Assembly: GCA_026397015.1 (NCBI GenBank) | Contig: JAPLVR010000003.1 | Span: forward strand, 32,001 to 96,000 | DNA: 64,000 nt | Direction of reading: 5' to 3' | DNA from: Candidatus Iainarchaeum sp. | GTDB taxonomy: Archaea; Iainarchaeota; Iainarchaeia; Iainarchaeales; JAAZKV01 | Shown here: piece after piece, positions 16,665-57,015 of the stretch | Position numbering within the stretch: position 1 is the stretch's first letter | Layout: every line of letters begins with the position of its first letter | The notes under the pieces: model-generated | Seen by the model: only the letters and a program-made list of their open reading frames with translations | The model's database searches: none | Told to the model about the DNA's origin: nothing | Position numbers and translations under genes: made by a program

Positions 16665-17360
16665 TTATCCAAATACATAACTAAAAACTTTTATCTTGCT
16701 TTCGGCTTCCTTTTTTTCGTGTTCGGTATTGAAAGTTATGTGCTCCCCTCTGTGTTTGTGGGCAAACATTTTTCCACTGGAAACCACCATGTCAAGAAAT
16801 GGAATCCATTCGAAGCGATTCGCCCCCTTCAAAACCTTTTTTTCGAAAACATAAAATCCAATATTAAACCAAAACGGCAGCAGCGGCTTTTCCTTGAAAC
16901 ATGTTACTTTCGCGCCTTTTGTTTCCATTAATCCGAATGGGCTCGCCATCTGATAAAGAACGTTTGTTATAAGAGCCTTTTTCCTTTTATGAAGCGCAAC
17001 CAATTTATTCAAATCAACATCCGCAACTGTATCGCCGTAACAAACAACAAACCGTTCCCCGCAAAATTTGCTCGCATCCATTATCCTTTCAAGCATCGAG
17101 GCGGCTGGGCCTGAATTCACAAATTTTACCTTCCATTTCTTTCTGGAAAAATTCTTGACCGAACTTTCAATCAGTTTTGCCTTATACCCTGTACAGACAA
17201 TAAAATCGTCGAACCCTTGGGAGGCGCAAAGCTGCATCAAGTACTGCAAAACGGGCTTGTTCTTTAACTCAACCAGCGGCTTTGGGATCTCTTTTGTCAG
17301 GGGCATCAGGCGCACGCCCTTTCCGCCGCAAAGAATCACAATTTTCGTGCTTCCCATCAT
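16665..17360 (-). CDS. Sugar-1-phosphate nucleotidyltransferase (cytidylyltransferase-like)
   Basis: ILCGGKGVRL, PKPLV, CYGDT, FKEKP. Confidence 0.9.
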   Translation of the reverse strand: MMGSTKIVILCGGKGVRLMPLTKEIPKPLVELKNKPVLQYLMQLCASQGFDDFIVCTGYKAKLIESSVKNFSRKKWKVKFVNSGPAASMLERIMDASKFCGERFVVCYGDTVADVDLNKLVALHKRKKALITNVLYQMASPFGLMETKGAKVTCFKEKPLLPFWFNIGFYVFEKKVLKGANRFEWIPFLDMVVSSGKMFAHKHRGEHITFNTEHEKKEAESKIKVFSYVFG

Positions 17361-18961
17361 CTTACTACCTTGTAGATTTTAGCGCACCCTTGTTCAAAAA
17401 CCTTTTGGATCAATCCGGTTTCCTCAAGAAGCGGCAATTTTTCAGACAGCGAATCGCTGTAGCACGTCGACGCGACAAACAAAGCGCCCTTTGATTTGAG
17501 CTCCGTAGAAAGTTCACTCACGGAAAAATTTTCAGCCAAATCCAATTGAATAATTTCCTGCCCGCTGTAATAATTCAGTTCCCTTGCCTTTCCAACCGAA
17601 GCAATTTTGCTTATTTCAGGATGCGCATCCAAATATGTGAATAATGGCGCGTCTTTTTCTTGAACAGAATAATAAAAAAGCGCGCTCCCTGAAGTCAGAG
17701 CAAAAGAAAACAGAGAAAAAAGAATTAGCGAGGAAATCAAAATAAATTTCGTTCTGCCCTGCAAACGCAAAAAACCTGCGCCTAGCAGAATCCCGAAAAA
17801 AGGGAAGAACGGAACGAAATACCTTATGTACCAGTCGCCGCGTATTACGTGAACTACGGGGATGAGCCCGAGCAGCATCGAAAATATTATTACAAGAAAG
17901 AAAATTCGCAATGGGGCAATCGGCTTTGTTTTACGCAAAAATTCACCTATTCTTTTAGCCCCTGAAATAATTTCCAAAATAATTTGTCGCGTTGCAACAA
18001 AAAAAATCGGAAAAACCATCACTGCAAAAAGGGCCGCAATCAAAAATATTGGCAAAGCGGAAATCAGCGGAATTTTTGAAGCAGCCATGGAAGGGGGAAA
18101 ATCAAAAAAACTCAGATATGCCCTAAACAAAATTTCAGGATTAAAAGCATTCAGCAAATTTATCGAAGTTACTTTGTCAATCGGCAGATAACTTTCTGTT
18201 ACAGATGCAGAAGCACCTGAATTTAAATATGAAAAAATAAAAAAGCTGGCTGACAAAAGGATTGCAACAAAAAACAACACAATAAACAAAAGAAACTTTT
18301 TCGGGATTATTTCGCGCTTGGAACCGCTCTTACACAGGAAATGCGCCGGACCGTACTTCCAAAACAGAACAATTAATACTCCTACAAGCATCGCCGGCAG
18401 CGCAACGGCGATTGTGAGTTTTGAAAAAGAAACAAGGAGCAACGCGAAAAAAGTTAGTGCCAAGTATTTAATTTCAGAAGACTTATTTGTTGATTCAACC
18501 CATGAATAAAAAGAATAGACAAAAAAAAGCAAAACAGTTGCGGCGAAAGACTCAACCATATTGACAGAACCGATTCTGGTCAGCCATGGATATGCCAAGA
18601 CAAACAATAACGGAATCTGGTATGTCTTCGGAAAAATTTTTTTGAAAAGCAGAAAAGCAAGGGCTGCTTGGACAATCATTACCAGAAGCGGAATGACTTT
18701 TACGAACGGCCAAACCATTGGAAGGCCTGTGAGGCCAAAAAAAGCGGCAAGTACGAAATGATAAAGGAGCGGTGGTGCATTGGATGGAAGGGGATTCCCC
18801 TCAATCAAATCTTTTGCCAAATTCAAGTGATAAACAGAATCATTGTACGCCGGCTCCGGCACAACAAAAATTGAAAAAATTCTGCAAAACAATGCGATTA
18901 AAATAAGCAAAAAAAGGATTTTTTCCGAGTTTTGAACCAAAACCCTTGATATGCGAAGCAT
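17357..18961 (-). CDS. Multi-pass GT-C-fold glycosyltransferase-like membrane protein
   Basis: About 11-12 TM helices. First loop YNDSVYH, PPLLYH, RYFVP and a soluble C-terminal domain. Confidence 0.72.
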   Translation of the reverse strand: MLRISRVLVQNSEKILFLLILIALFCRIFSIFVVPEPAYNDSVYHLNLAKDLIEGNPLPSNAPPLLYHFVLAAFFGLTGLPMVWPFVKVIPLLVMIVQAALAFLLFKKIFPKTYQIPLLFVLAYPWLTRIGSVNMVESFAATVLLFFVYSFYSWVESTNKSSEIKYLALTFFALLLVSFSKLTIAVALPAMLVGVLIVLFWKYGPAHFLCKSGSKREIIPKKFLLFIVLFFVAILLSASFFIFSYLNSGASASVTESYLPIDKVTSINLLNAFNPEILFRAYLSFFDFPPSMAASKIPLISALPIFLIAALFAVMVFPIFFVATRQIILEIISGAKRIGEFLRKTKPIAPLRIFFLVIIFSMLLGLIPVVHVIRGDWYIRYFVPFFPFFGILLGAGFLRLQGRTKFILISSLILFSLFSFALTSGSALFYYSVQEKDAPLFTYLDAHPEISKIASVGKARELNYYSGQEIIQLDLAENFSVSELSTELKSKGALFVASTCYSDSLSEKLPLLEETGLIQKVFEQGCAKIYKVVR

Positions 18962-25587: not shown

Positions 25588-27174
25588 GTGAGCGGTTTGA
25601 AGGACAAACAATCACAGTTGCCAAGAAAATTGTGGACCTGGCTGCCTGCAATGGCAATAATCTTTGCAGTCATTTTTATACTTCTGCAGCTGCAAAAACC
25701 CATAGCCGCGGACGAATTCTGGTATTTTGACAGTGCAAAATCTCTTCTACAAACAGGAAAGCCGCTTTTGCAATTCTGCTCAAACAGCGTGCCAGTTCTC
25801 TTTGAAGGCCATCCGCCGACATACATCTACTATCTCTCAATTTTTTTTGCACTCTTACCGGAACAGCTGATAAGATTTTCCGGAATTCCGGTCTTTCTGG
25901 CGCTCATATTTTTAACATACCTTGTCAGCCTGAAAGTCTTTTCGGAAAAAAGGAAAGCGATTTTTGTCACGGCACTTTATGCAATAAACCCGCTTGCAAT
26001 ACAGGGCGCGCTGCTGCTCGACATAGACAACACAATTCTTGCAATCGCAATAACTTTTTTCGTGCTTATTTTATTACACATTCAGGAGCAAAAAAATTTT
26101 AGGACAAGGATTGTTCTTGCCTCAGCGTGTTTCGCCTTAATTTTATGGGCAAAAACAACTGTGATTTTTATAATTTCAGTCGGGCTCGTTGCGTACGCAG
26201 TTCTTTTCGACAGGAAAAAAATAAAGGAAAATTTTGTGATGGCTCTCGGCGGGATAATTTTGTTTTGTGCAAGCTGGGCAGTATTTTGCGCCATCAGCGG
26301 AATTGAATTCTTAAGCGTTTTCGGATACATCGCAAGCACATTTGCAAGCAAATCAACATTGAGCGTCTCCGACAAAATTGTAACAATTTTATACTCAGGA
26401 TTAAAACAAAATATCCTGTGGATAACGATTCCGCTTTCGATTTTTTTCTTCTTGGGCGCAAAGAACACGAAAAACAAAAATCTGAAGCTTTTCGCGCTCG
26501 TGTCAATAATTGCTTTCATCCAGTACCTCCTTTCAATACCTTCAGGATACAGATTTCCAAAGTATATGGCGGCCTTTTTGCCGATGATAATAATTGTTGC
26601 GGGGGATGAAATAATAAAAATAGATTTCGAAAAGGCAAAAAAATTAATTCCAATTATTCTTTTTCCGGGCGCAGTATTTTTCGCGCTCCTAAGAGATCCT
26701 CTGGTGCACGTCAAAACATTTGCAGACGCCGTTTTTGTTGCCATAATAAACACACTTGCTGCCATGCCTGCGCTTTTTGTAAAAAGAAAAAAAGAGGTGC
26801 TGCTACTGCTTTACATCGGCACGTGTATCTATATAAACATTTTCCAATTGACCACTGACAGTTCAACGCTTTACAATTACAGCGAAAGGGGCCTTGTCGA
26901 CACAGCGCAATATTTGAAAGCTATGCTGCCAGCCGACTCAAACATATACACCTCCGGAAAAGAAATTGCATATTATTCCGGAACGAACAAGTATTGCTTC
27001 AAAACGCAAAACTTCACTGAGGAAATAGAGAAAAATTGCGTAAAAATGATTGTGTTGAAAAGGTATTGGGAGGAAAAAAATAATCCCGAGCTTGAGGAAA
27101 TTACAAAAAGCAATTTCTCGTTCCAAAAAGAATTCGGAGATTACAGCATTTATTCGACAAATGCGTGCAAATAA
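25588..27174 (+). CDS. ArnT/PMT-like GT-C glycosyltransferase
   Basis: AADEFWY (DE motif), GHPPTY, LYAINP, multiple TM helices and a C-terminal soluble domain. Confidence 0.85.
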   Translation: MSGLKDKQSQLPRKLWTWLPAMAIIFAVIFILLQLQKPIAADEFWYFDSAKSLLQTGKPLLQFCSNSVPVLFEGHPPTYIYYLSIFFALLPEQLIRFSGIPVFLALIFLTYLVSLKVFSEKRKAIFVTALYAINPLAIQGALLLDIDNTILAIAITFFVLILLHIQEQKNFRTRIVLASACFALILWAKTTVIFIISVGLVAYAVLFDRKKIKENFVMALGGIILFCASWAVFCAISGIEFLSVFGYIASTFASKSTLSVSDKIVTILYSGLKQNILWITIPLSIFFFLGAKNTKNKNLKLFALVSIIAFIQYLLSIPSGYRFPKYMAAFLPMIIIVAGDEIIKIDFEKAKKLIPIILFPGAVFFALLRDPLVHVKTFADAVFVAIINTLAAMPALFVKRKKEVLLLLYIGTCIYINIFQLTTDSSTLYNYSERGLVDTAQYLKAMLPADSNIYTSGKEIAYYSGTNKYCFKTQNFTEEIEKNCVKMIVLKRYWEEKNNPELEEITKSNFSFQKEFGDYSIYSTNACK

Positions 27175-27603
27175 ATGGTGAATTTTATGAGTGGAAGAAT
27201 GAGCAATTTCGCGGACAGAATTATTAAATGGAAATTTTTCAGATATTGCTTTTGCGGCGGAATAGCCGCGCTTGTGGACATGACGGTGTTTTTTTCTGCA
27301 AATGAAATTTTCAAGCTGCACTACCTAATAGCGCTTGCGATTTCATTCACCGTCGCAGCGGGTGTTAATTATTCCCTGCAAAGAAAGATAACTTTCAAAA
27401 ACACCTACAAAAAAATGCACAAACAATTCCCAGTATTCGTGGCAGTAGAATTAGTCGGGCTTCTGATCGCAGGGGTAAGCATGACGGCGCTTGTGGAAAT
27501 CTTCCGCCTCTGGCCGACATTGGCAAGGTTCATTTCAATATTTATCGCGCTGGCGTACAATTACACGGCAAATAAAAAAATAACTTTCAACATGATGAAA
27601 TAA
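27175..27603 (+). CDS. GtrA-family flippase-like protein
   Basis: FFRYCFCGGIAALVD, NYSLQRKITF, NYTANKKITF and 4 TM helices. Confidence 0.9.
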   Translation: MVNFMSGRMSNFADRIIKWKFFRYCFCGGIAALVDMTVFFSANEIFKLHYLIALAISFTVAAGVNYSLQRKITFKNTYKKMHKQFPVFVAVELVGLLIAGVSMTALVEIFRLWPTLARFISIFIALAYNYTANKKITFNMMK

Positions 27604-27647: not shown

Positions 27648-28469
27648 GTGAAAAAATACAAAAATATAGAAGGAAGTTATTACGAGGAGGCGCACGGCGG
27701 CCGAAACGGGGTGCAGCAGTTTTTCTACAAATCAAGGGAAGATTATTTCATAGAATTCATGGGATTGAGAGGAAACGAGAAAATAGCGGACATTGGATGC
27801 GGATCTGGAACGTTTACACGCGCACTTGCAAAGAAATATCCAAATATAGAAATGACAGGAATTGACATATCGGAAGACGCAGTTACGTTCGCGAAAAAAA
27901 CCGCAAAATTTGAAAAAATCAAAAACGCGAATTTCACGCAAGGCGCTTTGGAAAAAATTCCGGCAAAAGACAATTCTTTTGATGCAATAATCGCATCCCA
28001 TGTAATTGAACACATCCCGAGCCCGAAAAAGGCATTAATTGAAATTAGAAAGAAGCTTCGCAGCGGCGGAACGCTTTATTTAACAACTCCAAATTACATC
28101 TCACTCTGGCCGCTCGCCGAACTTGTTTTTGACAAAGCAATGGCGAAAAAAGGTTATAGCCTGGATGAACAACACATCTCACGCTTTAATTTTTTGACGA
28201 TAAAAAAATCTGTTGAAGGGGCGGGGTTTGAAATTGAAAAAATCAAAACACTTTACATATTTTCTCTTGAAGGGGAAATTCTTTCGCAAACGCTCGGCAA
28301 GATTTTATTTTGGTTTGATAAAAAACTTGACTTTTTGCCTTTTGGAATGATAATTTACATCAAAGCAAAAAAAAAACCAGTGAAAAAATTTAATTCTAAT
28401 AAATTCAAATCAAATATTCGAAACTCAACTAAAAAATCTCAATCTCAAAATTCAGCCAAAAAATCTTAA
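27648..28469 (+). CDS. Class I SAM-dependent methyltransferase
   Basis: IADIGCGSG, SFDAIIASHVIEH, LTTPN. The C-terminal tail may result from an A10 homopolymer indel. Confidence 0.9.
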   Translation: MKKYKNIEGSYYEEAHGGRNGVQQFFYKSREDYFIEFMGLRGNEKIADIGCGSGTFTRALAKKYPNIEMTGIDISEDAVTFAKKTAKFEKIKNANFTQGALEKIPAKDNSFDAIIASHVIEHIPSPKKALIEIRKKLRSGGTLYLTTPNYISLWPLAELVFDKAMAKKGYSLDEQHISRFNFLTIKKSVEGAGFEIEKIKTLYIFSLEGEILSQTLGKILFWFDKKLDFLPFGMIIYIKAKKKPVKKFNSNKFKSNIRNSTKKSQSQNSAKKS

Positions 28470-29147
28470 TCTCAAAAGAGTGAATGGAAATTTTACTATT
28501 TCCATCTTTCTTAATTTCGATTTGCCCGAAGTCCTGTCGGCGAAAAATATAGGCACTTCTTTTATTTTCGCGCCTTTTTTGTGACAATGATAAATCAGCT
28601 CTTCCAAAAAAGAATAGCTCGTTGATTTTATCTTTGAAAAATCAATTTTTTTTAGAAGTGATATTTTGTAACAGCGAAAACCGGAAGTAAGATCATTTGC
28701 AGGAACTCCCAAAATAAGGCGCGCCAAAAAATTTGCGCCGCCGCTGATTATTTTTCTTGAAATAGCCCAGTTAGTTCCCCCGCCGGCAACATAGCGAGAG
28801 CCTATCACCACACCAGCGCCAGCTTGGATTTCACGTATAAAATCTTTTGAATAATCAAAATCATGGGAAAGGTCAGCATCCATCGAAAAAACAACATCCG
28901 CGTTCAGCTCAAATGCTTTTTTGAATCCCGCAAGATAGGCGGAACCAAGCCCCATTTTGCACGGCCTGGAAACCAAAAAAACTTTCCTGAATTTTTTTGC
29001 AGCCTTGGCGGTGCCATCCGGCGAATTGTCATCTACAACTATTGCCTTAAATTCGACGCCCTTTATTTTCTGGGAAAGGATTTTCGGAAGAAGACGTTCA
29101 AGATTTTTCTTTTCATTATAAGTCGGAATCACTACTGCAGCAATCAA
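28452..29147 (-). CDS. Polyprenol monophosphomannose synthase (DPM1-like GT2)
   Basis: IPTYNE, VDDNSPDGT, GLGSAY, MDADLSH, IGSRY, DLTSGFRCY. Confidence 0.95.
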   Translation of the reverse strand: MIAAVVIPTYNEKKNLERLLPKILSQKIKGVEFKAIVVDDNSPDGTAKAAKKFRKVFLVSRPCKMGLGSAYLAGFKKAFELNADVVFSMDADLSHDFDYSKDFIREIQAGAGVVIGSRYVAGGGTNWAISRKIISGGANFLARLILGVPANDLTSGFRCYKISLLKKIDFSKIKSTSYSFLEELIYHCHKKGAKIKEVPIFFADRTSGKSKLRKMEIVKFPFTLLRLRFFG

Positions 29148-30619: not shown

Positions 30620-33400
30620 ATGGGAAAAACACTGAAAGCGCCGATTTTTTTATTTTTAATACTTATTTTTTTAATCCCGGGAATTTTTGCCGGCAGCGCA
30701 TCCATAAACACTTTTGATTTGAATGTCGCTTCTGCGACAACACTCTCGGGAGTCAAAGCAACTTTGACATATTTGAACACGGGCGATTTTAATGCGCTCT
30801 GCTTCAACACATCGGATAGCAGTTCGGGCAGCACATGCCAAGAAGGAGATTTTGGGGCTTTTCCAAGTTTAACTTTGGATTACTCTCTGATAAGCGGGAT
30901 GTCTTCTAATGCACAAGAAGGAAGCCACACAATTTACGCATTTGTAAAACAGGATGACGGCGGTTATTCAGCATCGACATCCAAAGGGCTGGTAATTGAT
31001 GCAAGCGCCCCGACATATACTGTTTTTCCGGCAAATAATTCAGACCATAATGTAGGCACATTAACTTTTGATATTAATTTTACCGATTCGTCTACCCCTG
31101 TTGTTTCGCTGATAAAATTGAACGGAACCACAACAATAACTGACGGATCCTCATTGAGCCCCAGTGACGGAACGCACACAATTACAATTGATGCAAACGA
31201 CGCGCTCGGAAACGCCATGGCAACAGCTACAATTACTTTCAGAGTAGATACTAACGCACCGACATCCGCGAGCGTCAGTTCGGCAAATTCTTCTTCATAC
31301 ACAAATAGCAGCACACCCACAATTACCGCGAGCGCCACGGACACAGTTTCGGGAGTCGACGGCGGGCAAATAGCGCTTTCGTGCAAGCCGACCGGCGCAT
31401 GGTATGTAAGGTCGTATGCAACGACGATTACTGATTTCAACATAGTTTTAAGCAGCTACGACTGCAACACGAGCGATGGAAATAAATTGATTTATGTTAA
31501 GTTCAAAGATGCCGCTGGCAACTGGACAACAAGTTCTGTTATTACGAACGCACTTATTGACAGGACTGTGCCGAGCGCGCCAAGCGGATTAAGTGCGACT
31601 GTTGGAAACGCACAGGTTGAATTGAGTTGGAGCGCTCCGGCTGCGGACAGCCTTCCAGGATCGGGAAACGCAGGATATAAAGTGTATAAAGACAATGCTC
31701 TTTACGCCACAGTTACTAGCGCAACAACCAAAACAGTTACAGGACTAACGAACGGCACAAGTTATGGTTTCAAAGTTAGAACTTATGATAATGCGGGAAA
31801 CTTGAGCGAAGCAACCGCGGATGTAAATGCGACGCCTTCGGCTGGGCCTGTTGCGAACGCAACCATCACAGTGAAAAGAGGAACTGCGGCGCCGAGTTAT
31901 GTGAAAAACGGTGACGCTTTAACAGTAACATGCTCTTTCAGCTACGACGTTAATTCCGCAAGAATTTATTACAAATACAGAAATCCTGACCAGGCACAGG
32001 AAATCCTCGAAGGGCCGACAAGCAATGTATCTTCAATAGAGGATACGATAACTCTTGCAAGCGGGTACACAAGCATTGACTTCTGGTGCAATGGAACACA
32101 ATACAGCGCAACGGTTTCTTCCTCAACAAATTCAATTTCTTTCGACAACACCGGACCGACAATTGCATGGTCGGATGCGAATGACACCAATGCAGAGTGG
32201 AGCGGCACGAAAATCGCAGTTGTTACTGCAACGGACGACAAAGGAATGGACACCGTTGAATTCGAACTGAACGGCATAAAATACGGCGCGACAAAAGAAA
32301 CAGGCACCACAAAATATTCTTACAGCTTCAACACAAAGGATTACAACAACACTTCATACACCCTAAAGGCAATCGGCAAAGACATGGCGGGAAACACAAC
32401 CACAATAACAAAATCAATAACGATTCACAACATACTTAATGCAACGCAAATGGCAGAAGAGGCAATTGCGCAGGCAAAGGCAAAAAAAATTATTGTGGAG
32501 GATTTGATGAAGTTTTTTGCAACAGAAGGGCTGGTTTTCCCGGTGAATCTGGTGACAGAAAAGAGTGCGGCAGACCTGCTGTTGAAGGATGCGGAAGCGA
32601 TAAAAAACAGCGACAGCAACAAGGCGACCGAAAAAGCGAATTCCGCAAAAGTTAAGTATTCAGAAATAAATAGCGCCGCTGCAATATCCTCAGACGAAAC
32701 AAAAACAAAATTTTATGAATATGACTCAAACAATCTGGTTGAAATACTTTTGAAAGCAGGTTTGAATCAGGACCAGGCCGACGAAGCCAACAAGCTGATA
32801 ACCGGGACAAAAGCAACCAGAAAATTAGTAATAGTAAAAGTTGGAAATGATGCAAACGCGGGATATCAGGCAAAAATAGAAATAACTTTTACGAGCGATA
32901 CAAACGACAGCACGCTGAAAATTGTTGAAATTATTCCGAAAGAGTTTGCGCAAAAAGCCACGCAGATTTTCTCCGACTATAATTTTGTAATAATCAACAA
33001 TGACCCGATAATAGAATTCACCGTTCCGGTAACAAAAGGCAAGAGCGTAAAAATTTCCTACGGAATAGGAAACATAACAAAAGAACAGGCGGAAGGAATG
33101 ATTTCAAATAATCTTGTCGCAAAATTTTCCAGCCCGCCGATAATAATTTCGGCAAGAACAAATGTTGCCGGCACACTGGGCGGTTTTCCTGACATAGTCG
33201 GAATACTTATGTGGGTCGGGATAATACTCATCGTTTTGATTGTTGCCGGCGGGATAATTTACTTCTTAATGCAAAAAAAATCGCCGCCTCTGGGAAAGGA
33301 CAGTTCGATAGCGGGCACGGTAAAAGACGCTGTTGTCGATAAAATAATCGCCCCTGAAAACAAAAAAAGCGAAGAAAACCAAATATGGGAGCACAAGTAA
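30620..33400 (+). CDS. Cell-surface glycoprotein: signal peptide, Ig-like/fibronectin-III domains, helical stalk, C-terminal TM anchor
   Basis: Signal peptide, DxAGN Ig-like repeats, an FN3 domain (LSWSAP...VTGLTNGTSYGFKV), many NxS/T sequons and a TM followed by KK near the C-terminus. Confidence 0.9.
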   Translation: MGKTLKAPIFLFLILIFLIPGIFAGSASINTFDLNVASATTLSGVKATLTYLNTGDFNALCFNTSDSSSGSTCQEGDFGAFPSLTLDYSLISGMSSNAQEGSHTIYAFVKQDDGGYSASTSKGLVIDASAPTYTVFPANNSDHNVGTLTFDINFTDSSTPVVSLIKLNGTTTITDGSSLSPSDGTHTITIDANDALGNAMATATITFRVDTNAPTSASVSSANSSSYTNSSTPTITASATDTVSGVDGGQIALSCKPTGAWYVRSYATTITDFNIVLSSYDCNTSDGNKLIYVKFKDAAGNWTTSSVITNALIDRTVPSAPSGLSATVGNAQVELSWSAPAADSLPGSGNAGYKVYKDNALYATVTSATTKTVTGLTNGTSYGFKVRTYDNAGNLSEATADVNATPSAGPVANATITVKRGTAAPSYVKNGDALTVTCSFSYDVNSARIYYKYRNPDQAQEILEGPTSNVSSIEDTITLASGYTSIDFWCNGTQYSATVSSSTNSISFDNTGPTIAWSDANDTNAEWSGTKIAVVTATDDKGMDTVEFELNGIKYGATKETGTTKYSYSFNTKDYNNTSYTLKAIGKDMAGNTTTITKSITIHNILNATQMAEEAIAQAKAKKIIVEDLMKFFATEGLVFPVNLVTEKSAADLLLKDAEAIKNSDSNKATEKANSAKVKYSEINSAAAISSDETKTKFYEYDSNNLVEILLKAGLNQDQADEANKLITGTKATRKLVIVKVGNDANAGYQAKIEITFTSDTNDSTLKIVEIIPKEFAQKATQIFSDYNFVIINNDPIIEFTVPVTKGKSVKISYGIGNITKEQAEGMISNNLVAKFSSPPIIISARTNVAGTLGGFPDIVGILMWVGIILIVLIVAGGIIYFLMQKKSPPLGKDSSIAGTVKDAVVDKIIAPENKKSEENQIWEHK

Positions 33401-35847: not shown

Positions 35848-37629
35848 ATGAAAAAGCTGTTAATCGCATTGTTTCTAACAGTAACAATGCTTTTTTTTCT
35901 CGGGTGCACCCAACCACCTGTTTGCGGCAACGGGTTTTGTGAAACAGGAGAAACACCTGAAAACTGTCCTGCGCAAAATGGGGGAGATTGTCCGCCAATT
36001 AGCTTGTGCGGAAACGGAACGTGTGATGCCGGAGAAACTTACCAAACCTGCCCAGAAGACTGCGGACAGCCGCCTGAATGCAGAACAAATGATGACTGCC
36101 CGACAATATGTGATGGCAATATCACACTACTAACCAATTGTGTCAATGGCATGTGTGAGGAACCCCAGATACACATTGGATGCAAAATTGGAAGCTGCGA
36201 CGCACAATGCGGAACCGACGCGGACTGCAACGAAGGGCAAAAATGCGACACACACAAATGCACGTGCGGACTTGACACCAACGGCGTAAAAGCGGTTGTA
36301 CTCGTGGACAAGAGGCTTTATTCGCTTTTGAAAAGCGAAATCGACAGGTATGTGGAACTTGCAAAAAGCAGGAGGCAATTCGGCATACTTTTGGACAATA
36401 ATAAGAACTTAGACGATTATGCTTTCGAGGAAGTCCGAGGGCTCATTAAGAAATACAAAAAAGAAAACCCTTACATGGAGGGGGCGCTATTCATTGGAAA
36501 TATTAAATTGCCCTCATTTTACAGTTCCAGAGGGGACAACGAACAAATAAGACTCTGGCCGGCATATTACGAAAGTTTGAATTTGCAATTAGATAAATTT
36601 TATCAAGATAATGCCACCGTGCCCCCCTGTGCACCGGACATCTTGGAATTTTCCCAAGAATGGTGCGAAACCACCCAGCCAAAACCAGTTCCAAAACACG
36701 ACTTTGATTATATAAAAAATTATCCTGCAGCGCCAGATATTTGGACAGCTTACATTCCAGTTGGCGAAATTGGGGCCAATTCTTACCAAGACTTTGCAAA
36801 CCAGTTGAAACCATACTTTTCAAAAGTTTTAAAATTTTACAACAGGCAATATGCCCCAAATGAAAAAATGTACGAATTATCAAGCGACCTGTTCGGTGGA
36901 GACCTGAACTGGTGGCAAATGTATAGCCCGATAACAAAAATGGACTTTTATGCGATGAATCCGGACAAAAAAGACCAAAATTTGCCGTACATTGGCTGCT
37001 GCAGAAGGCTGCCGGAAGAAGGCTGTGACAAATGCAGGCGGCCAATTTCAGAGTGCCTTGTAAGGGCACCCCTCGAAAACTACTCAAATTTTGAGGCATT
37101 CAAAAAAGATTACGACAGCAGAGCTGGCATGGACACAGATTGCTGGATGGGCGACGGGTCAATTTACATAGAACATATGCAACAAAACAGCTACGAATTC
37201 GTTCTCGTGAATCAGCACAGCTATGGAGGATACTCAGTAATTTCTAGCGAACAGGCAAAAAACCTTACCAATGGCGGAATGATAATGATCGGTGAGGGCT
37301 GCTCGGTTGCAGAATTCAGGCAGCCGAACTCGTCTTCGTATGTTGATTCGGGCTTTACTGCAGCTGACAACATTTTATTGAGCTATATATATGGCTCATC
37401 AAATTTTCTTGCAGCAATGGGTTCCCCGTTTAACAGGGGCCATTCGTCACAGCCAGAAATATTAATTGACGCAATGAAAAACAACGGAGATTATTTGGGA
37501 AAAGCACATTTCAAAAGAATGCAACGCTTATACGTTCTTGCAACTAATGCATACGAGCAAAAAGAACAAATGAACGAAATGCTGCTTGGGGACCCTTTCC
37601 TTGACACTGAATCATCCTTATCAAACTGA
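35848..37629 (+). CDS. Lipoprotein with Cys-rich CGNGxC repeats and a C-terminal peptidase C25 (gingipain)-like domain
   Basis: Lipobox FLGC, CGNGFCETGE/CGNGTCDAGE and CxxDxDC repeats. GALFIGN, PDIW, candidate dyad NQHS...GEGCS and terminal LLGDP. Confidence 0.75.
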   Translation: MKKLLIALFLTVTMLFFLGCTQPPVCGNGFCETGETPENCPAQNGGDCPPISLCGNGTCDAGETYQTCPEDCGQPPECRTNDDCPTICDGNITLLTNCVNGMCEEPQIHIGCKIGSCDAQCGTDADCNEGQKCDTHKCTCGLDTNGVKAVVLVDKRLYSLLKSEIDRYVELAKSRRQFGILLDNNKNLDDYAFEEVRGLIKKYKKENPYMEGALFIGNIKLPSFYSSRGDNEQIRLWPAYYESLNLQLDKFYQDNATVPPCAPDILEFSQEWCETTQPKPVPKHDFDYIKNYPAAPDIWTAYIPVGEIGANSYQDFANQLKPYFSKVLKFYNRQYAPNEKMYELSSDLFGGDLNWWQMYSPITKMDFYAMNPDKKDQNLPYIGCCRRLPEEGCDKCRRPISECLVRAPLENYSNFEAFKKDYDSRAGMDTDCWMGDGSIYIEHMQQNSYEFVLVNQHSYGGYSVISSEQAKNLTNGGMIMIGEGCSVAEFRQPNSSSYVDSGFTAADNILLSYIYGSSNFLAAMGSPFNRGHSSQPEILIDAMKNNGDYLGKAHFKRMQRLYVLATNAYEQKEQMNEMLLGDPFLDTESSLSN

Positions 37630-46293: not shown

Positions 46294-49200
46294 TTAGACT
46301 TTTCTGTATTTTTTTGTTCTTCTGCCGGCGCCGGCCTTTCTCGTGAATATGAACGAAACCAGCAGGAATACTGAAACGAAAATTATTAGGCCTGCCGCCG
46401 TTCCCGGAACGGAAGGAATATTCATTCCGGAACCCGTTGAAGAGCCGACATTGAATGTCATCGGGTTCTTTCCCTCTCCTGTTATTTTTCCGTCTGTTCC
46501 GCTGAAATAAACTCCGTTGTCCTTGAAACCCTGATTTAGAGGAATTATGTTTCCATTTTCAGGGTACCACTTGCCCGTATTTGGGTCATACCAAAATGAG
46601 CCGTTTGTGCCCTGGGCTGAGAGCAGAGTTTCCGGAGTGCCGTTGTTGTAAGTTAACTTCGGAACGCCATTCTCGGCATCGAATTTCAAAGTATGGCTTT
46701 TTCCGTCAACAGTATCAAACACGAGCGTTCCATCATCCAGTTGTTTTATGCCATCAACGCCGCCGACGATTTCGGAATCCTCAAGGATTTTTCCTGTTGC
46801 CTTATCCCTTCTCCTGAAATAATCTTTACATTCGCCGGACACCGGGTCAACCTTTGAGTAGAATTCGTAAATGTATTTGTCGGTAGTGAATTGTGTGAAA
46901 GGGCCGAGTTTGTCCATTGATAGGTTGAAGTTGCTTACTTTCATCTGGCCCAAATCGTCGTTAGGGTAAGCCAGCGCTTTAAAATCTATTGCGGGAACAG
47001 GGCATTGCGTTTCCGGGTCGATGACCGATGTTTTCGTTGCTGTCAACCCCGCAACGTCTTTTGAATCAAGAACAGAGTCCTTGTGCTGTCTCAGCCAAAC
47101 AATCAGCTCGTTTGTTTCAGGCTTCAGGACAATTACTCCGTGTTCGAAATTCATTGAAACGAATTTTCCAATCTGGCTTAATTGTCCGTTGGTAGAAAGT
47201 TTTGTCTGCCAAAATCCGTCTATCAAAATTTTTGAATCGGAGCCCTGTGCTGCTTGTCTCGGCGCCAATCCTTCAAGGCTAATCTGCCCGTTTTCTATAA
47301 AAATTCCGCTGTAGTCAGCGGTTTTCAAACTCTCAAGTTTTCCGAACACCTGCGTGAGCTCGTCGCCCGAAAAAGGGATTCCAACCTGTTCCTCGACAGC
47401 TTTTTGGATACAGCTAAGCACATCCGCATAAGTTACTTTCACTTCGCCGTTTATATTTATTTCAAATACTATGGCATCCGTTTCTGGCGCGCCGACTCTT
47501 GTAACGGTTTTTGGCACGACGATTCCAGGAATCCTGGCGTCGGGCGGATTTGTGGCAAGCCTTACATTATCCGCCTTTGTTGAGGGAACAATAACTTTTC
47601 CGTTGTATGTTATTTCCCCTGTTTTGTTGTCGATTCCCACTGCATTGTTCCCATCAGTATAAACCAGTTTTCCTTCAGTCGGGTACCCTGCAGCCATCGT
47701 AAAATCTTTATACCAAATGTAAAATACGTCCTTCCCAAGAAGGCTTCCCTTGTTCGGCGGAGCAAGCAGCATGGACGCCTGCAACAGGTTTGCCTTTTTC
47801 GCCTGTTCGGAAAAGTTTGCAAACTGGTTTTTCAGCTTGTCCATCGCCTGTGAAACAAGATTTCCGCCCGATGCAGCATCGGTTGATTTTTTTGAAACGG
47901 CGTCGTTAATATTTTCGGCAAATTTTGAAACTGTATCCGTAAGTGTTTCATTTGAAATGAGTTCTTTTGTTTTTCCGGCAACATATTTTTCTGTTGGCGG
48001 CATATAAAAATGAATGTAGTACCCTTCGGCATCGTCTACGCAGTCTTTCAATTTTGGCGCTAACGCCAGCTGCTGAATTCCCGACATTAAAAGCCCGGCG
48101 CCGGGATGTATGAAGTATGCAAGATTTTCCGCGCCCGCAAGAACCCCGCCCGAAGCAGTGCCAAACATCCCCAAATTCGCCCAGCCGATTCCGATTTCCC
48201 TCAATTTTTGGTCGCAGGTTTCGCTCTTTGTCCTGCCGTCAACCAAATTTATCTGACCGCCTTCTATATCTCCGCTCTGCCCTTTTATGTTTGAGTGATG
48301 GGTGTATGCAACTATGGTTGAACCGTCCTTTGATTTTTGTTCCGAATCAACAGCTTCAACCAAAAATGCCTGTAATTTTTCAGGCGCCCTAAAGCCGCCG
48401 AACATCAAATAATCACCTTCGGACTGCATGTTTGAGACACAATCGACGCAGTTCTCGTTGTGGGAGAAGAAAGCGAGGTCCTTTACTGAGTCGCGCATTA
48501 TTGCGTTCTTGCCGAACAAACTGGCGCCAAGCCCGCCTTCACCGGAGATGGACGAAACTATTTGGCTTGTCGTCTTGTTATTTGCGGCAAGCTTATCAAC
48601 AGCCATGCTCTTCCAAGGCAGCCAGTTTATTACTTTTGCAAACATATCCCCCTGGTCGGAGCCTTCATTCGCGAAAAAGTCGATGAACGAATCCCTATAA
48701 ATTTTATCTACTCCCTGAACAATATCCATTTTTGTCCATGTGTCGGGAAGCATGTATGCTGAAATATCTTCGTACCCGAAACCGCGTTTCGCATTCCAAT
48801 AAACTATGGGAAGCAGCGTTCCCTTATAGAGCCCTCCCGTGAGAGGCTGTGTGAAATATTCTGTCAGCATGTTTTCCTGCGCGGCAAATTGTTTGTCCAG
48901 CCAGCTCGCGGACCTGCGCGGCTTGAAATTCTTTTCCGCCATCGCGTTCATAAGCTCCTTCATGTTGTTTTCCGCTGCGTTGTAACGCTTCATCATTCTG
49001 CCTTGCGCAATACTGTTTGCGAATTGTTCAGGCGTGAGCTTCTGAGCCGGCACATATCCAGCGCCATAAACCGTAATTGAAGGGGGAAGCTGCGGATTGG
49101 TTGCAAGAGTTTTAAGTGAATCTTCGGTCAGTGGGTATAATGTCCCATCATTTAGTCTTATTGCGGTTTGATTTGCACCCTGTGTTTTGACCCATCTTTC

Positions 49201-50985
49201 CAGATCTGTAAGAGGCACATTTTCCTTCAAAACTTTTTCGGGAGATATTTTATACAACTGCAATGCGCCGTCCTGTGTCGCTTCAAATGTGGCAGAACTT
49301 GGATTTTTATACCAGCTCGCCCAGTTTCCTGTTCCATCTTTGTAACCAAACTGTTTCGTAATTTCTTTCATGTTAAAGGACTCGGAATCCGCCACCGAAA
49401 TAAATCCTTGATCGGGTAAGGAACCGTTCTTTCTCAATGACACCCCCTCAAAGCCAAAAAGAGAAGCCCTTTCTTGTGTCCACTCCGGGACATCGAGCCT
49501 CACATAATCATCCCACGCGTTGCCCATATCGGCAAGCCGCCTTCCAACATCAACCACTGCATCTTCGTACTGCTTTTTCAGCATTGCATCGGCAGGATTC
49601 GCCATATGCGCGGCATTTAATACATCAAGGGTTTTTCTCCACTCCGTTGCCGAAACATTGCTTGTCTTAACGTAAGAGTAAAGCGGCTGCAAATCATCAA
49701 AGAGCTTTTCTTTTTGCGTGGCGGTAAGCTTCATTATCGGCGAACCATCCTGCATTGCTTCGCTCACAAATCCGCCGGCACCGTTTGAAAATAATTTCTT
49801 GTTGATTGTCAAATCCTCAAGGATTTTTCCGAAGCCGTCCCTCTGAACATTAGGATAATATTGACTCATCTTTTCTATCCCGACTAATTGCGCAGGCGTT
49901 TCTTTTATTCCGCTTACCGTTTTTGAATACAAATTGTTGAGCTTGCTGAAAATGGTTTTTCCCTGAAGCTCGGGGAAAGTTCTTATTCCGACCGCTTTCA
50001 TCAGCTTTCCAGCCTGGCTCACGAGGGTCGGGCCGATATTGAAAACAACCAAGTCGGTTGAGAACCACGCGTTATAATATTTGTCAAATCTTGAATATGT
50101 GCTTATGGTACAATTGCTGTTGGTGCAACTGGTAGCGCTTTTTGCGGCGTAGCTCTCGGTCGCGATTGAATTTTTTATCTGATTGGAGGCAAGCACTTTT
50201 CCGACGGTAAAACCGTCCGCATTTACATCATCAATATTGCTCATTATCTTGGTTTGATCTTCGCTCGACAGATTCGCCTTAATTTTTTCAACCGGGTCTA
50301 AGATGGATTCTCCCGCACTCTTAAAATAAGAAGTGAAGCCGACGCCGCTTGTTCTGTACATTAATCCTTCACCATATATCTTGCAGTCCGCGGTCTTCAA
50401 ATCCTTGCATCTTCCAACCCTCAAAGTATCATCCAGAACAAATCCAATTCCCCACGGACCCTTTATGATATGGTTGGAAAAAAAGTTGAATCTGTCAGCA
50501 GGAGTCATCTCATTGTGCGGCTTGTTCGACACTGCATTCTTTCCGTCACTGCTTTCTCCAATAAGCATGAGGTCGTCAAGCTTCTTGCCCGGCTCATTAA
50601 CATCCTGGCCGTCGCCTATTTTTTTTCCGTTAAATCCGTCACTAGTAATGTTCATTATTGCCTTGGATTCTTTCGGCGTAAGGGAAGACATGACACATGC
50701 TTTGCCGTTCGAGTAATCGATTCCTTCAATATTTGAGGAACCCGGAGTGTTCGTGTCTGTTATAGGCACGTTGGTGTCGCTGGCGAGTGACGCCTTTTCC
50801 GCCAAAAAAGAATTCGAAATATCACTGCCATTTGTGCTATTTTCTTTTATACCGCCATAGTCACTGAAATCGCGCGCATACGCCGCGAATGCCGGCGAGC
50901 TCATGAAAAGTATCATTACAACGAATGCGGCGAAGAAGCCGCCGAAGAAATGTTTTGCGTTGCCTTCACGAACCATTACCCGCAC
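46294..50985 (-). CDS. Giant (1563 aa) secreted, C-terminally anchored protein of unknown function
   Basis: Signal peptide ...SSPAFA-AY, paired cysteines, an internal Gly-rich hydrophobic segment, and C-terminal PSVPG + TM + basic tail. Confidence 0.9.
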   Translation of the reverse strand: MRVMVREGNAKHFFGGFFAAFVVMILFMSSPAFAAYARDFSDYGGIKENSTNGSDISNSFLAEKASLASDTNVPITDTNTPGSSNIEGIDYSNGKACVMSSLTPKESKAIMNITSDGFNGKKIGDGQDVNEPGKKLDDLMLIGESSDGKNAVSNKPHNEMTPADRFNFFSNHIIKGPWGIGFVLDDTLRVGRCKDLKTADCKIYGEGLMYRTSGVGFTSYFKSAGESILDPVEKIKANLSSEDQTKIMSNIDDVNADGFTVGKVLASNQIKNSIATESYAAKSATSCTNSNCTISTYSRFDKYYNAWFSTDLVVFNIGPTLVSQAGKLMKAVGIRTFPELQGKTIFSKLNNLYSKTVSGIKETPAQLVGIEKMSQYYPNVQRDGFGKILEDLTINKKLFSNGAGGFVSEAMQDGSPIMKLTATQKEKLFDDLQPLYSYVKTSNVSATEWRKTLDVLNAAHMANPADAMLKKQYEDAVVDVGRRLADMGNAWDDYVRLDVPEWTQERASLFGFEGVSLRKNGSLPDQGFISVADSESFNMKEITKQFGYKDGTGNWASWYKNPSSATFEATQDGALQLYKISPEKVLKENVPLTDLERWVKTQGANQTAIRLNDGTLYPLTEDSLKTLATNPQLPPSITVYGAGYVPAQKLTPEQFANSIAQGRMMKRYNAAENNMKELMNAMAEKNFKPRRSASWLDKQFAAQENMLTEYFTQPLTGGLYKGTLLPIVYWNAKRGFGYEDISAYMLPDTWTKMDIVQGVDKIYRDSFIDFFANEGSDQGDMFAKVINWLPWKSMAVDKLAANNKTTSQIVSSISGEGGLGASLFGKNAIMRDSVKDLAFFSHNENCVDCVSNMQSEGDYLMFGGFRAPEKLQAFLVEAVDSEQKSKDGSTIVAYTHHSNIKGQSGDIEGGQINLVDGRTKSETCDQKLREIGIGWANLGMFGTASGGVLAGAENLAYFIHPGAGLLMSGIQQLALAPKLKDCVDDAEGYYIHFYMPPTEKYVAGKTKELISNETLTDTVSKFAENINDAVSKKSTDAASGGNLVSQAMDKLKNQFANFSEQAKKANLLQASMLLAPPNKGSLLGKDVFYIWYKDFTMAAGYPTEGKLVYTDGNNAVGIDNKTGEITYNGKVIVPSTKADNVRLATNPPDARIPGIVVPKTVTRVGAPETDAIVFEININGEVKVTYADVLSCIQKAVEEQVGIPFSGDELTQVFGKLESLKTADYSGIFIENGQISLEGLAPRQAAQGSDSKILIDGFWQTKLSTNGQLSQIGKFVSMNFEHGVIVLKPETNELIVWLRQHKDSVLDSKDVAGLTATKTSVIDPETQCPVPAIDFKALAYPNDDLGQMKVSNFNLSMDKLGPFTQFTTDKYIYEFYSKVDPVSGECKDYFRRRDKATGKILEDSEIVGGVDGIKQLDDGTLVFDTVDGKSHTLKFDAENGVPKLTYNNGTPETLLSAQGTNGSFWYDPNTGKWYPENGNIIPLNQGFKDNGVYFSGTDGKITGEGKNPMTFNVGSSTGSGMNIPSVPGTAAGLIIFVSVFLLVSFIFTRKAGAGRRTKKYRKV

Positions 50986-53331: not shown

Positions 53332-54120
53332 TTACTCATAATCAGTTTTAGGAATCAGCGCACAATTGAAATCGGCTTTGTTGGCTGCTGAATCCAAGCC
53401 CCACAAATTGTTTACGTCCTTTGAAATCCACAAATCCAGCGACATTATGTAATTAGCGCCAACTCCGGTGACTGCGCTTAGGTCTTTGCTCGTTCCCTTG
53501 TCCAGAAAAACTTTGCTTGTTGCAGAATCAACCTTTCCAACGTATGGAAAAACCTTGTCTTTTAGTATGCCTGGCGAAGCTGGAATGCAATAATACATTC
53601 TTCTCTCGCTCCCGACAATATTTCCGGAACTATCTTTCTCGCATTCAGTTCCGGACTTCTTGCATTCATGAACCCCCATAAGCAGAAATAAAAATTTCTG
53701 CGAATCTTCCTGAAACAAATAAAATGCATAATCGACGGAGTGCTCGAAAGGTTTCATTACGGAATGAACAGTATTGGCAATCGCCTTTCTTGTGGCGCTG
53801 TTCAGCGACGGGTTCTGATTGCCGCTGCTCTCCGCGTAATCCTCCTTTATCATGGCCAACAAATAATCATATTGGGGGTTATCGCCGGTTAGCGAATAGA
53901 TGCTTGTACCGTCGCGCATCACATTTACATAAGCAATTACTTTCAGCGTGTCCATCGCAAAATCGCCGGAATAAAAAGAATTTATCTGCTCTTCGACTGT
54001 CGCACCGTAATTAATCAAAAAATAAAATAAGAGCGTGCAAATCATCGAAACTATTGCAAGAAAAAATAAGGAATCCGTAAGAGCAGCCTGCCCGCCCTCA
54101 TCCCTTCCAAAATAAGTCAT
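53332..54120 (-). CDS. Minor pilin-like protein (class III signal peptide)
   Basis: GG|QAALTDSLFFLAIV hydrophobic helix after a GQ cleavage motif. ATGA-coupled to the upstream gene. Confidence 0.75.
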   Translation of the reverse strand: MTYFGRDEGGQAALTDSLFFLAIVSMICTLLFYFLINYGATVEEQINSFYSGDFAMDTLKVIAYVNVMRDGTSIYSLTGDNPQYDYLLAMIKEDYAESSGNQNPSLNSATRKAIANTVHSVMKPFEHSVDYAFYLFQEDSQKFLFLLMGVHECKKSGTECEKDSSGNIVGSERRMYYCIPASPGILKDKVFPYVGKVDSATSKVFLDKGTSKDLSAVTGVGANYIMSLDLWISKDVNNLWGLDSAANKADFNCALIPKTDYE

Positions 54121-54743
54121 TCCCAAACCACCATCGCCATTATCGCGGGCGCAATCACGCTGTGATTTCCAATGATTTTAGTCTGAACCGCAACAGGATA
54201 AAAACGGACTATGTAATTTTTTTGGGAACAGCTGAATTTCTTGGAGCCAAATTTTACATAATCACAAAAATATCTGCACTTCGGATCCGCGCCCGGCCCT
54301 ACGACGCTGCTTTCACAACCCGCATATTCCGAATCCACAAGAAGGTCTTCTTCGTTGAAAGATTCGTCTGTTCCGCTTTCACAATTTATTATGTTTGAAA
54401 GCTCGTCACCGGGGGAATTTCCTTTTATAAGATAAATGCCGACCATGAAATTGTACGGGCTTTGCTGAACCCTTATCCTGTCACACCTCGTTTTGAACTG
54501 GCTCAAACTCAGGAGGAGCGAATCGCCTTTCAACTGTCTTGAAATCGAAATAAGATTTATTTTCTCGTTAAGAATTTCGTTTTTTGTTTCATAGTTGTTG
54601 AGCGTCGCGGAAAAAACCGTGAAAAAAAGCAGAAGTGCGAAAACAATCGGAATCAGCGAAGGAAGGTCATCGCCTATCGCACCGATAAACCCCCTGCACG
54701 GGGAAAAAAATTTTTTAAAAAAACCTCTTTCCAATTTTTCCAT
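54117..54743 (-). CDS. Minor pilin-like protein (class III-like signal)
   Basis: CRG|FIGAIGDDLPSLIPIVFALLLFF followed by a Cys-containing globular domain. Confidence 0.7.
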   Translation of the reverse strand: MEKLERGFFKKFFSPCRGFIGAIGDDLPSLIPIVFALLLFFTVFSATLNNYETKNEILNEKINLISISRQLKGDSLLLSLSQFKTRCDRIRVQQSPYNFMVGIYLIKGNSPGDELSNIINCESGTDESFNEEDLLVDSEYAGCESSVVGPGADPKCRYFCDYVKFGSKKFSCSQKNYIVRFYPVAVQTKIIGNHSVIAPAIMAMVVWE

Positions 54744-54800
54744 CTACATCGCCCACATAACCAAAATTTTTTATAATTTTTTTCATTCGTTTTTGCCAGA

Positions 54801-54898
54801 CTTTTTTATTCCATCCATTCCCTATTTTTTTATCCAACCAACCGCCTATTTTTTGTTTGTTTCACCTTTCATCTTTTTTATCCCACCAGGCCCCTATC
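54801..54898. repeat. Three degenerate ~25-bp copies of the 3' end of the 54878-55612 gene
   Basis: Minus strand: ATAGGGGCCTGGTGGGATAAAAAA / ATAGGCGGTTGGTTGGATAAAAAA / ATAGGGAATGGATGGAATAAAAAA. Confidence 0.55.
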
Positions 54899-55612: not shown

Positions 55613-55618
55613 TTTTTA

Positions 55619-56248: not shown

Positions 56249-56256
56249 TAAACCAC

Positions 56257-56442
56257 CTAACTTGAATTTGTGCCCGTATTTGTAGTCTTTGGAATATTTT
56301 TCTGCGCCTGCTGGAACATCGGCTTTGCAATTAAAATCAGGAGCAGCGCGACTATCGCGAAAACAAGTATCAAATAAACGGCGCCAAAATCCGAGGAAGC
56401 GCCTTCCTCGCGGAACAATTCCTTAATCCTCTTGAAGCCCAT
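56257..56442 (-). CDS. Small Flp-like pilin (61 aa)
   Basis: LFREEG|ASSDFGAVYLILVFAIVALLLIL and a very short tail. Confidence 0.7.
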   Translation of the reverse strand: MGFKRIKELFREEGASSDFGAVYLILVFAIVALLLILIAKPMFQQAQKNIPKTTNTGTNSS

Positions 56443-56456
56443 GAAAAAACAATGGA

Positions 56457-56486
56457 GAAAGAAGTATATAAGTTTATACTTCTTTC
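56457..56486. promoter_or_regulatory. Perfect 12-bp inverted repeat overlapping a TATA box
   Basis: GAAAGAAGTATA-N6-TATACTTCTTTC. Minus-strand TTATATA lies ~23 nt before ATG 56442. Confidence 0.6.
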
Positions 56487-56501
56487 AAAAAGCAATTTGA
56501 T

Positions 56502-57005: not shown

Positions 57006-57015
57006 CCAAACACCT

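Follow-up and report, generated by a model that had tools for sequence, protein, structure and literature searches.

The window, the stretch of DNA analyzed here, comprises 64,000 nucleotides from Candidatus Iainarchaeum sp. (contig JAPLVR010000003.1, positions 32,001 to 96,000 of the forward strand). This study concerns one of its genes, at positions 30620..33400 on the + strand, which encodes an exported surface protein of 926 amino acids, and in particular the tripeptide Asp-x-Asn (D-x-N), which is repeated in that protein and in other exported proteins of the same genome. The genome (0.9 Mb in 6 contigs) belongs to the phylum Iainarchaeota/Diapherotrites (DPANN). An earlier examination of the letters alone (the sequence-only reading) had suggested that D-x-N directs modification of Asn by a second system, beside that for N-x-S/T, in which the hydroxyl residue at +2 is not needed.

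Results

Organization of the 926-residue protein

The gene was defined by its open reading frame (ORF), Pfam domains, an AlphaFold2 model, and Foldseek matches. A signal peptide or hydrophobic leader was read from the sequence at approximately residues 1–24 (30620..30691, + strand), where the model has a helix at residues 7–18. Three Pfam domains scored above the cut-offs: Big_13 (residues 108–211), fn3 (319–397), and Big_7 (534–584). The model, which was built on 18 orthologues and has a mean predicted local distance difference test (pLDDT) score of 79.1, consists of a chain of β-sandwiches, three long helices (608–730), a last β-sandwich (733–844), a transmembrane (TM) helix (859–884), and a short tail. 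The TM helix coincides with a hydrophobic stretch in the translation and represents the predicted C-terminal anchor (33194..33271, + strand). The Foldseek matches were multi-Ig surface proteins, adhesins, and S-layer proteins, including one archaeal S-layer protein. As modeled, the product is a multi-domain Ig-like/fn3 surface protein in which signal peptide, domains, and membrane anchor are all present.

The three long helices and the β-sandwich that follows them ('VEIIPK...DPIIEF') form a C-terminal module (32420..33169, + strand) which, taken together with the TM anchor (32420–33397), has no Pfam family. When residues 601–926 were used as the query, at least 290 representative proteins (50% identity representatives) matched at E≤0.001, and the position of the module in them was always C-terminal. 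It is also present in two other D-x-N-rich surface proteins of the same genome (G000:C3:116438-119305 and G000:C6:73410-76211). Ten of the matching clusters were looked up, and names were found for four, three being Diapherotrites or 'ainarchaeum' and one a plain 'archaeon'. The module may be the surface-protein anchor of this phylum.

D-x-N in the 926-residue protein

The protein contains 19 D-x-N tripeptides, against 4.06 expected from its composition. Their Asp residues are at positions 33, 56, 142, 151, 191, 210, 272, 281, 286, 401, 443, 519, 522, 574, 665, 702, 744, 760, and 786, and the corresponding Asp codons begin at 30716, 30785, 31043, 31070, 31190, 31247, 31433, 31460, 31475, 31820, 31946, 32174, 32183, 32339, 32612, 32723, 32849, 32897, and 32975 (+ strand). 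All 19 thus lie within 30716..32983 and precede the C-terminal TM helix; six of them continue as N-x-S/T. In 20000 shuffles of the whole protein the mean was 4.05 (sd 1.89) and none reached 19, and in 3000 shuffles confined to 20-residue blocks the mean was 4.7 and the maximum 14. Among all residue pairs at gaps 0–3, D-x-N ranked first (z 7.4).

These results bear out the counts of the sequence-only reading, which had listed the same 19 tripeptides, all extracellular, an expectation of about four, and six N-x-S/T continuations. Its side counts were also correct. The Cys-rich, lipoprotein-like exported protein at 35848..37629 (+ strand), which has no Pfam family, has a mild excess of D-x-N (6 against 2.8 expected), and D-x-N is rare in the GGR (0 against 0.5) and in the 775-residue ATPase (1 against 1.3). 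The 'giant protein' with DTN..DTN near its N-terminus is an exported protein of 1563 residues without a Pfam family (46294–50985, − strand); the two DTN are at residues 70 and 77, and despite them its total is only 6 against 6.5 expected.

Fourteen of the 19 sites were common to at least 5 of the 18 orthologues. The other five (residues 401, 443, 519, 574, and 744) were common only to the two closest orthologues, and their number is about that of the chance background of 4. The orthologue alignment had 87 distinct D-x-N columns, with the excess carried by approximately 27 columns present in at least 4 of the 18 sequences; the low-occupancy columns held about 91 occurrences against about 85 by chance and allow no inference on selection. 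In the AlphaFold2 model the Asn of D-x-N is in a loop at 12 of the 19 sites, in a strand at five, and at a helix N-cap at two.

D-x-N in exported proteins of the genome

The sequence-only reading had called for a comparison of secreted with cytoplasmic proteins against shuffled controls. For this purpose, 906 ORFs of the genome were called greedily in favor of the longest frame and assigned to classes by a simple rule based on hydrophobicity. In the signal-peptide/anchor class (143 proteins), 388 D-x-N were observed against 159.3 expected (2.44x). The excess was smaller in other proteins with one or two TM segments (91 proteins; 137/80.4, 1.70x) and in polytopic proteins (112 proteins; 67/52.3, 1.28x), and was absent from the 560 cytoplasmic proteins, which had 263 against 276.4 by composition (0.95x) and 274±15 in shuffles. 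The first two classes combined, 234 exported proteins, had 525 D-x-N; shuffling of whole proteins gave 239.4±14.1 (z 20.3) and shuffling within 20-residue blocks 251.3±14.6 (z 18.7). Within the signal-peptide class, no pair at gaps 0–3 was as over-represented as D-x-N (z 18.1), the next being T-x-T (z 5.6). Individually, 35 of the 234 exported and 14 of the 560 cytoplasmic proteins reached a Poisson p<0.05. The excess is limited to membrane-crossing proteins, as that of an acceptor sequon would be. A lack of enrichment over shuffled or cytoplasmic controls, which the sequence-only reading had named as evidence against its proposal, was not observed.

Sequence requirements of the motif

Pairs related to D-x-N were flat or depleted in the signal-peptide class: the ratios of observed to expected were 0.98 for the mirror pair N-x-D, 0.97 for D-x-D, 0.79 for N-x-N, 0.81 for E-x-N, 0.92 for D-x-Q, 0.69 for D-N, and 0.98 for D-x-x-N. 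Because D-x-N is enriched and its mirror and substituted forms are not, both the direction and the chemical identity of the two residues matter.

The contribution of the residue at +2 was examined by dividing the sites of the exported proteins into sub-classes. D-x-N-x-S/T was present 106 times against 36.8 expected (2.88x) and D-x-N-x-[not S/T] 419 times against 203 (2.07x), whereas [not D]-x-N-x-S/T was at expectation (624/646, 0.97x). The ratio for plain N-x-S/T was 1.05, and in cytoplasmic proteins all three sub-classes were at approximately 1. The same order of the +2 sub-classes was found in relatives; the enriched, middle, and unenriched groups of relatives used there were defined by D-x-N itself, which leaves only the +2 S/T order and the Pro content usable from that comparison. 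We conclude that Asp at −2 is the determinant of the motif. Ser or Thr at +2, required in the sequons of the STT3/AglB/PglB family, is not required here, because the excess persists without it and increases modestly with it. An excess of D-x-N without the +2 hydroxyl, as proposed in the sequence-only reading, was therefore confirmed; a second system working beside one for N-x-S/T was not, since no footprint of N-x-S/T was seen in this genome where Asp at −2 was lacking.

Flanking residues were determined for 1440 D-x-N sites in 729 exported proteins pooled from 30 genomes. Pro was depleted at the middle position (ratio 0.46, 25 sites) and at the position after Asn (0.35, 19 sites). In eight control pairs (N-x-D, D-x-D, N-x-N, E-x-N, S-x-N, T-x-N, G-x-N, and D-x-S) the Pro ratios were 0.71–1.45 in the middle and 0.71–1.21 after. 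About half of the D-x-N sites are attributable to chance, and at 3.8% Pro these alone would supply about 27 Pro sites; the selected sites are therefore essentially free of Pro on both sides of Asn. Pro is thus excluded next to Asn as in a sequon, at +1 and, as in the bacterial extended sequon, also at −1. Lys was depleted at both N+1 and N+2, hydrophobic and aromatic residues were favored at N+1, and neither a Gly nor a second acid accompanied the motif (G at N+1, 1.09; D at N+2, 0.95).

Independence of fold

The 18 full-length orthologues of the 926-residue protein (34–61% identity) had 342 D-x-N against 84.6 expected (4.0x), whereas 102 remoter fn3/Ig homologues found in the same search had 201 against 255.6 (0.79x, median 0.55). 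A second family gave the same result: three GLUG paralogues of this genome had 31 against 11.1 (2.8x) and 117 GLUG homologues of other organisms 572 against 626 (0.91x). Nine named archaeal GLUG homologues (from Methanolobus, Thermoplasmata/Thermoplasmatota, Saliniplasma, Methanohalarchaeum, and Woesearchaeota) summed to 43/62 for D-x-N and 238/163 for N-x-S/T, showing that in other archaea it is the classical sequon, and not D-x-N, that is in excess in this family. The comparison outside the phylum is one of homologous proteins and not of whole secretomes.

Within the genome, the enriched proteins are of several kinds. They include a Laminin_G_3/GLUG protein (13 against 4.1) and a MopE-like protein (14 against 3.6), both with a class III signal, a HYR protein (27 against 11.6), and two proteins without a Pfam family (37 against 5.7 and 33 against 4.7). 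In the relative G032, a repetitive protein of 2465 residues (G032:C1:25920-33317), which reads by eye as a probable β-helix, has 85 D-x-N against 13.8, most of its repeats being 'D-N-N-hydrophobic'. The D-x-N excess follows the lineage, independent of fold or family; the sequence-only reading had named the sharing of these positions with homologues from other phyla as evidence against its proposal, and in both families those homologues lack the excess.

Distribution in the phylum

Relatives (32 in all) were sampled mostly as 60–100 kb each, a few as 33–80 kb, and G051 as approximately 170 kb. For 29 relatives pooled, D-x-N was in excess in large exported proteins (613/316, 1.94x) and in small exported proteins (303/185, 1.64x) and not in cytoplasmic proteins (796/916, 0.87x). 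Enrichment was strong in G001, G003, G020, G025, G047, G046, G030, G032, and G058, with ratios of about 1 in some others, showing that the trait is patchy or variable in strength. Of the at least 290 representatives of the C-terminal module, 140 new ones were listed; these had 1374 D-x-N against 515.7 (2.66x), with E-x-N at 0.90 and N-x-D at 1.05. Among the 109 of them with at least 600 residues, the ratio was 2 or greater in 76 and below 1.3 in 17.

In the sister order (family f28; G073, G052, and G051), surface proteins were enriched in E-x-N as well. One protein had 21 E-x-N against 3.1 and 8 D-x-N against 2.5, and a second had 13 against 1.7 and 8 against 1.5; one of these two examples, from G051, owes its count to 'EGNY/EKNLAFV' repeat units. 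There was again no reliance on Ser/Thr at +2 (1.75x with and 1.65x without). The sister order uses [D/E]-x-N.

AglB

The genome has a single gene of the STT3 family, located approximately 10 kb upstream of the window (PF02516 match, 101 bits, G000:C5:19839-20558, within a 707-residue ORF at G000:C5:19728-21848). The family was present in 40 of 41 genomes (the window's own and 40 relatives), and it was the only Asn-directed enzyme family for exported proteins found in the genome. In one relative the gene contains an in-frame TAA (G005:C1:96014-98107), which could reflect a broken gene or an assembly error. The AglB profile matched STT3A at 2e-31 and PglB at 1e-6. Its motifs are the first acidic motif 'EFDSYYH', 'FFEEDS', 'VGEE' in EL5, and WW-N-Q-G, the last aligning with the WWDYG of human STT3A/B. 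Sequence inspection revealed no recognizable DK motif.

Among 79 AglB loci of Iainarchaeota, the residue after WW was D in 58, N in 10, S in 6, and G in 5. The Asp was thus lost in 21, and the canonical WWDYG was retained in only 14. The AglB of G051 in the sister order has WWGLG, and those of genera g3 and g5 have AGAQGDN in place of FFEEDS as the second acidic motif. A search for AglB loci of other phyla returned 80 loci, all of the Iainarchaeota AglB type, including three with other-phylum titles that were taken, unchecked, as binning labels.

Excerpts of one published source (PMC7226087) indicate that the hydroxyl of the +2 Ser/Thr is hydrogen-bonded by all three residues of WWD (both Trp and the Asp), and that the −2 acid is bound in PglB by R331 (E319+12), a position occupied in yeast by D362 (E350+12). 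The pattern 'VGEE..G..F..K[YF]' was kept in all 33 AglBs examined, and an invariant Lys is found at +11 relative to the catalytic Glu of EL5. That this Lys is the equivalent of R331 is a lead and not a result. A search of the PDB with AglB sub-regions found nothing relevant.

The AglBs were compared at positions three and four of WWDYG, at the residue that follows GH, at the Lys of EL5, and in the second acidic motif. In the 79 AglB-flanking loci, the D-x-N ratio was 1.04 for 'GHW' types and about 1.56 for the others, but 'GHW' was rejected as a marker of motif absence, strongly enriched genomes such as G032 being of this type. The sequence-only reading had suggested an inspection of AglB and GT-C paralogs for altered WWD or DK motifs. 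The WWD of this AglB is indeed altered, to WWNQG; the DK was not recognizable and none of the features compared tracked the motif.

Glycan genes in the window

Two glycosyltransferase genes of the GT-C type in the window had been suggested as the modifying enzymes. One encodes a PMT_2-like GT-C protein of 528 residues with 11 TM segments (25588..27174, + strand; PF13231 match of 29 bits in a six-frame search); the other encodes a 534-residue protein with 12 TM segments and no Pfam family (17357..18961, − strand). Neither co-occurs with the motif, and both were rejected as D-x-N enzymes. The 528-residue protein was found in only 3 of the 41 genomes. The 534-residue protein was found in 10, including the motif-free G034, G036, G038, and G039, and was not found in the strongly enriched G003, G020, G025, and G032.

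The PMT_2-like gene (25588–27174) forms a module with a GtrA gene (27175–27603) and an opposite-strand GT2 gene (28452–29147). The module resembles a lipid-phosphate-sugar dependent unit for glycosylation at the outer face.

Discussion

The results described above lead us to propose, with a probability of about 0.5, that acid-x-Asn is a lineage-specific N-glycosylation sequon of exported proteins, read by AglB through the acid at −2. D-x-N would be the acceptor signal for modification of Asn on exported proteins of Iainarchaeota, with [D/E]-x-N serving in the sister order. The modification would most likely be N-glycosylation by the single divergent AglB/STT3 oligosaccharyltransferase, which would recognize Asn via the acid at −2, in the manner of bacterial PglB, and for which Ser or Thr at +2 would have become dispensable. 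Approximately 20–35 surface proteins would then be heavily decorated, among them the 926-residue protein with some 15 selected sites. Each of three steps is here an inference from the sequences: the modification of Asn, its identity as a glycan, and the role of AglB as the enzyme.

Two lines of reasoning favor this proposal. First, the motif is short, directional, exact in its residues, restricted to exported proteins, independent of fold, and exclusive of Pro, its acid varies between orders, and the classical sequon is found elsewhere in its place; a signal recognized by an enzyme would account for this combination better than an element of folding or metal binding. Second, no Asn-directed machinery other than AglB is present throughout, and the +2-reading motif of AglB is degenerate in this phylum, which points to a sequon that AglB would read.

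Several observations weigh against the AglB sequon. The excess is concentrated, with 233 of 285 excess sites in 20 proteins, and the ratio was 1.5 or less in 8 of the 20 exported proteins with at least 800 residues, including the 1563-residue protein of the window. The predicted outer loops of 335 polytopic proteins had no excess (75/74.9; inner loops 104/84.2, by a crude topology call), and seven small pilin-like genes of the window (53332–58255, − strand) had 2 D-x-N against about 3.7 expected. The ratio was about 1 in the relatives G034, G036, G038, G039, G083, G049, and G063. None of the AglB features tested separated motif-bearing from motif-free lineages, and the AglBs of unenriched lineages keep the same EL5 Lys, which is itself 2–3 residues off the R331/D362 position in two HMMER alignments (to STT3A and to yeast Stt3) that disagree with each other. 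The excess sites of the 926-residue protein are mostly conserved positions of the family, and in the AlphaFold2 model the Asn of D-x-N is placed like other Asn (in loops, 12 of 19 and 31 of 45); both findings fit a structural role equally well. The mapping of the sites on a predicted structure, which the sequence-only reading had suggested, was uninformative. Finally, the exported class rests on our own ORF calls and a hydrophobicity rule, and not on a trained predictor.

The two larger adhesins with class III signals, encoded elsewhere in the genome and described above, are enriched, unlike the pilin-like genes.

In the main alternative, D-x-N has a structural or metal-binding role in extracellular β-rich proteins and involves no covalent modification; the tripeptide might be a pair of Ca2+ or Mg2+ ligands, a turn held by side-chain hydrogen bonds, or a strand-edge motif, and the phylum would favor it for stability. 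The sites conserved among the orthologues of the 926-residue protein speak for it, since they include an invariant D191-A-N193-D194...N198 and the linker 'VDTNAP', which we take to resemble the Ca2+-binding linkers of Ig-like adhesins. So do the modeled positions of the sites at strand ends, hairpin turns, and helix N-caps, the hydrophobic flanks, as on a β-strand, the concentration in large β-rich proteins and absence from pilins and membrane-protein loops, and the use of both D and E, each a metal ligand, in the sister order. In turns and in the coordination of Ca2+, Asp and Asn can usually stand in for each other, and Pro is favored in the middle of β-turns. In our data, however, D-x-D, N-x-D, and N-x-N were not enriched, middle Pro was depleted for D-x-N alone, the second acid and the Gly that a metal site would add were missing, the same folds in other phyla lacked the motif, and unrelated folds in this phylum had it. 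The further ligand positions and D/N interchange of a DxDxDG or cadherin-like motif were not seen, which weakens the Ca2+ or Asx-turn explanation that the sequence-only reading had itself offered, while leaving it the chief competitor. We consider a structural role unlikely. The Ca2+ sites of cannulae, as described in an excerpt of PMC12518558, are not relevant to D-x-N.

A second alternative accepts the signal and replaces AglB with something else, such as a different enzyme directed at Asn or Asp (for instance a GT-C or a novel transferase), a reaction that cross-links proteins, or a binding partner, for example a receptor of host or virus. The lack of any AglB feature that tracks motif strength and the altered second acidic motif in g3 and g5 are in line with it, as are the GT-C, GtrA, and GT2 module and the orphan 12-TM protein in the window. 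Both window candidates failed to co-occur with the motif, no other Asn-directed family for exported proteins was found in the genome, and the exclusion of Pro at −1 and +1 together with the mild preference for Ser/Thr at +2 matches the behavior of an oligosaccharyltransferase. We regard this alternative as quite improbable.

An artifactual enrichment, produced by composition, by D and N that cluster locally, by internal repeats, or by the calling of ORFs and of secretion, is highly improbable, because even though some counts come from repeat units (in G051 and in the 'DNN' protein of G032) and ORFs and classes were called heuristically, the excess withstood shuffling within local blocks, was absent from the mirror pair, was significant in 35 exported proteins, and recurred in 140 non-redundant representatives of the C-terminal module.

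If the AglB sequon is extended to the phylum, the whole of Iainarchaeota may have rewired the STT3 signal so that an acid at −2 is read and Ser/Thr at +2 is dispensable, a generalization to which we would give slightly less than even odds. Enzymes of the STT3 family would then not all follow the N-x-S/T rule, and surface proteins would carry glycans at sites overlooked by all present predictors, changing the prediction of glycoproteomes for uncultured archaea. It would also provide a new specificity for glyco-engineering and a view of how acceptor recognition evolves, as roughly one in four of these AglBs no longer has the Asp of WWD. Were D-x-N to prove a metal or structural site, a two-residue signature with a z of about 20, restricted to the secretome of one phylum, would still constitute an unexplained rule of protein design. 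A search of the full-text literature, with subscription journals and supplementary files outside its coverage, found no D-x-N or extended sequon in Archaea, and the term 'extended sequon' was absent from the AglB papers among the matches listed.

Comparison with known systems

The Ca2+ motifs of extracellular β-sandwich proteins are cadherin-type DxNDN linkers and DxDxDG loops. D-x-N shares with them an Asp and an Asn two residues apart, a location in extracellular Ig-like domains, and sites in linkers ('VDTNAP', 'DANDALGN'). It differs in lacking accompanying ligands, in the flat ratio of D-x-D, in being tied to no single fold, and in its restriction to a lineage.

Canonical archaeal AglB and the AglB described here have in common a single STT3-family gene, the first acidic motif, the EL5 Glu, the WW dipeptide, and, by prediction, surface targets. 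The canonical system has N-x-S/T, WWDYG, and DK; here N-x-S/T without Asp is at 0.97, the motif is WWNQG, and no DK was recognized. For Nitrososphaerota, an excerpt of PMC12153357 gives the N-x-S/T sequon and WWDYG.

The closest bacterial counterpart is the PglB sequon of Campylobacter, D/E-X1-N-X2-S/T, which resembles our motif in the acid at −2, the avoidance of Pro at −1 and +1, the excess limited to exported proteins, the acceptance of D or E in the sister order, and, tentatively, a conserved basic residue near the EL5 stretch equivalent to that of R331 in C. lari PglB. The differences are that here Ser/Thr at +2 is dispensable (2.07x without it), that the enzyme is archaeal/eukaryote-like, and that Glu is no substitute for Asp in the window's order (E-x-N, 0.81).

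In Archaea, the S-layer glycoprotein of Halobacterium salinarum is said to be glycosylated at one Asn independently of a sequon, with no −2 rule known. The two cases would share an archaeal setting and a dispensable +2 hydroxyl; that of H. salinarum involves one site, whereas the rule proposed here for Asp at −2 would apply proteome-wide.

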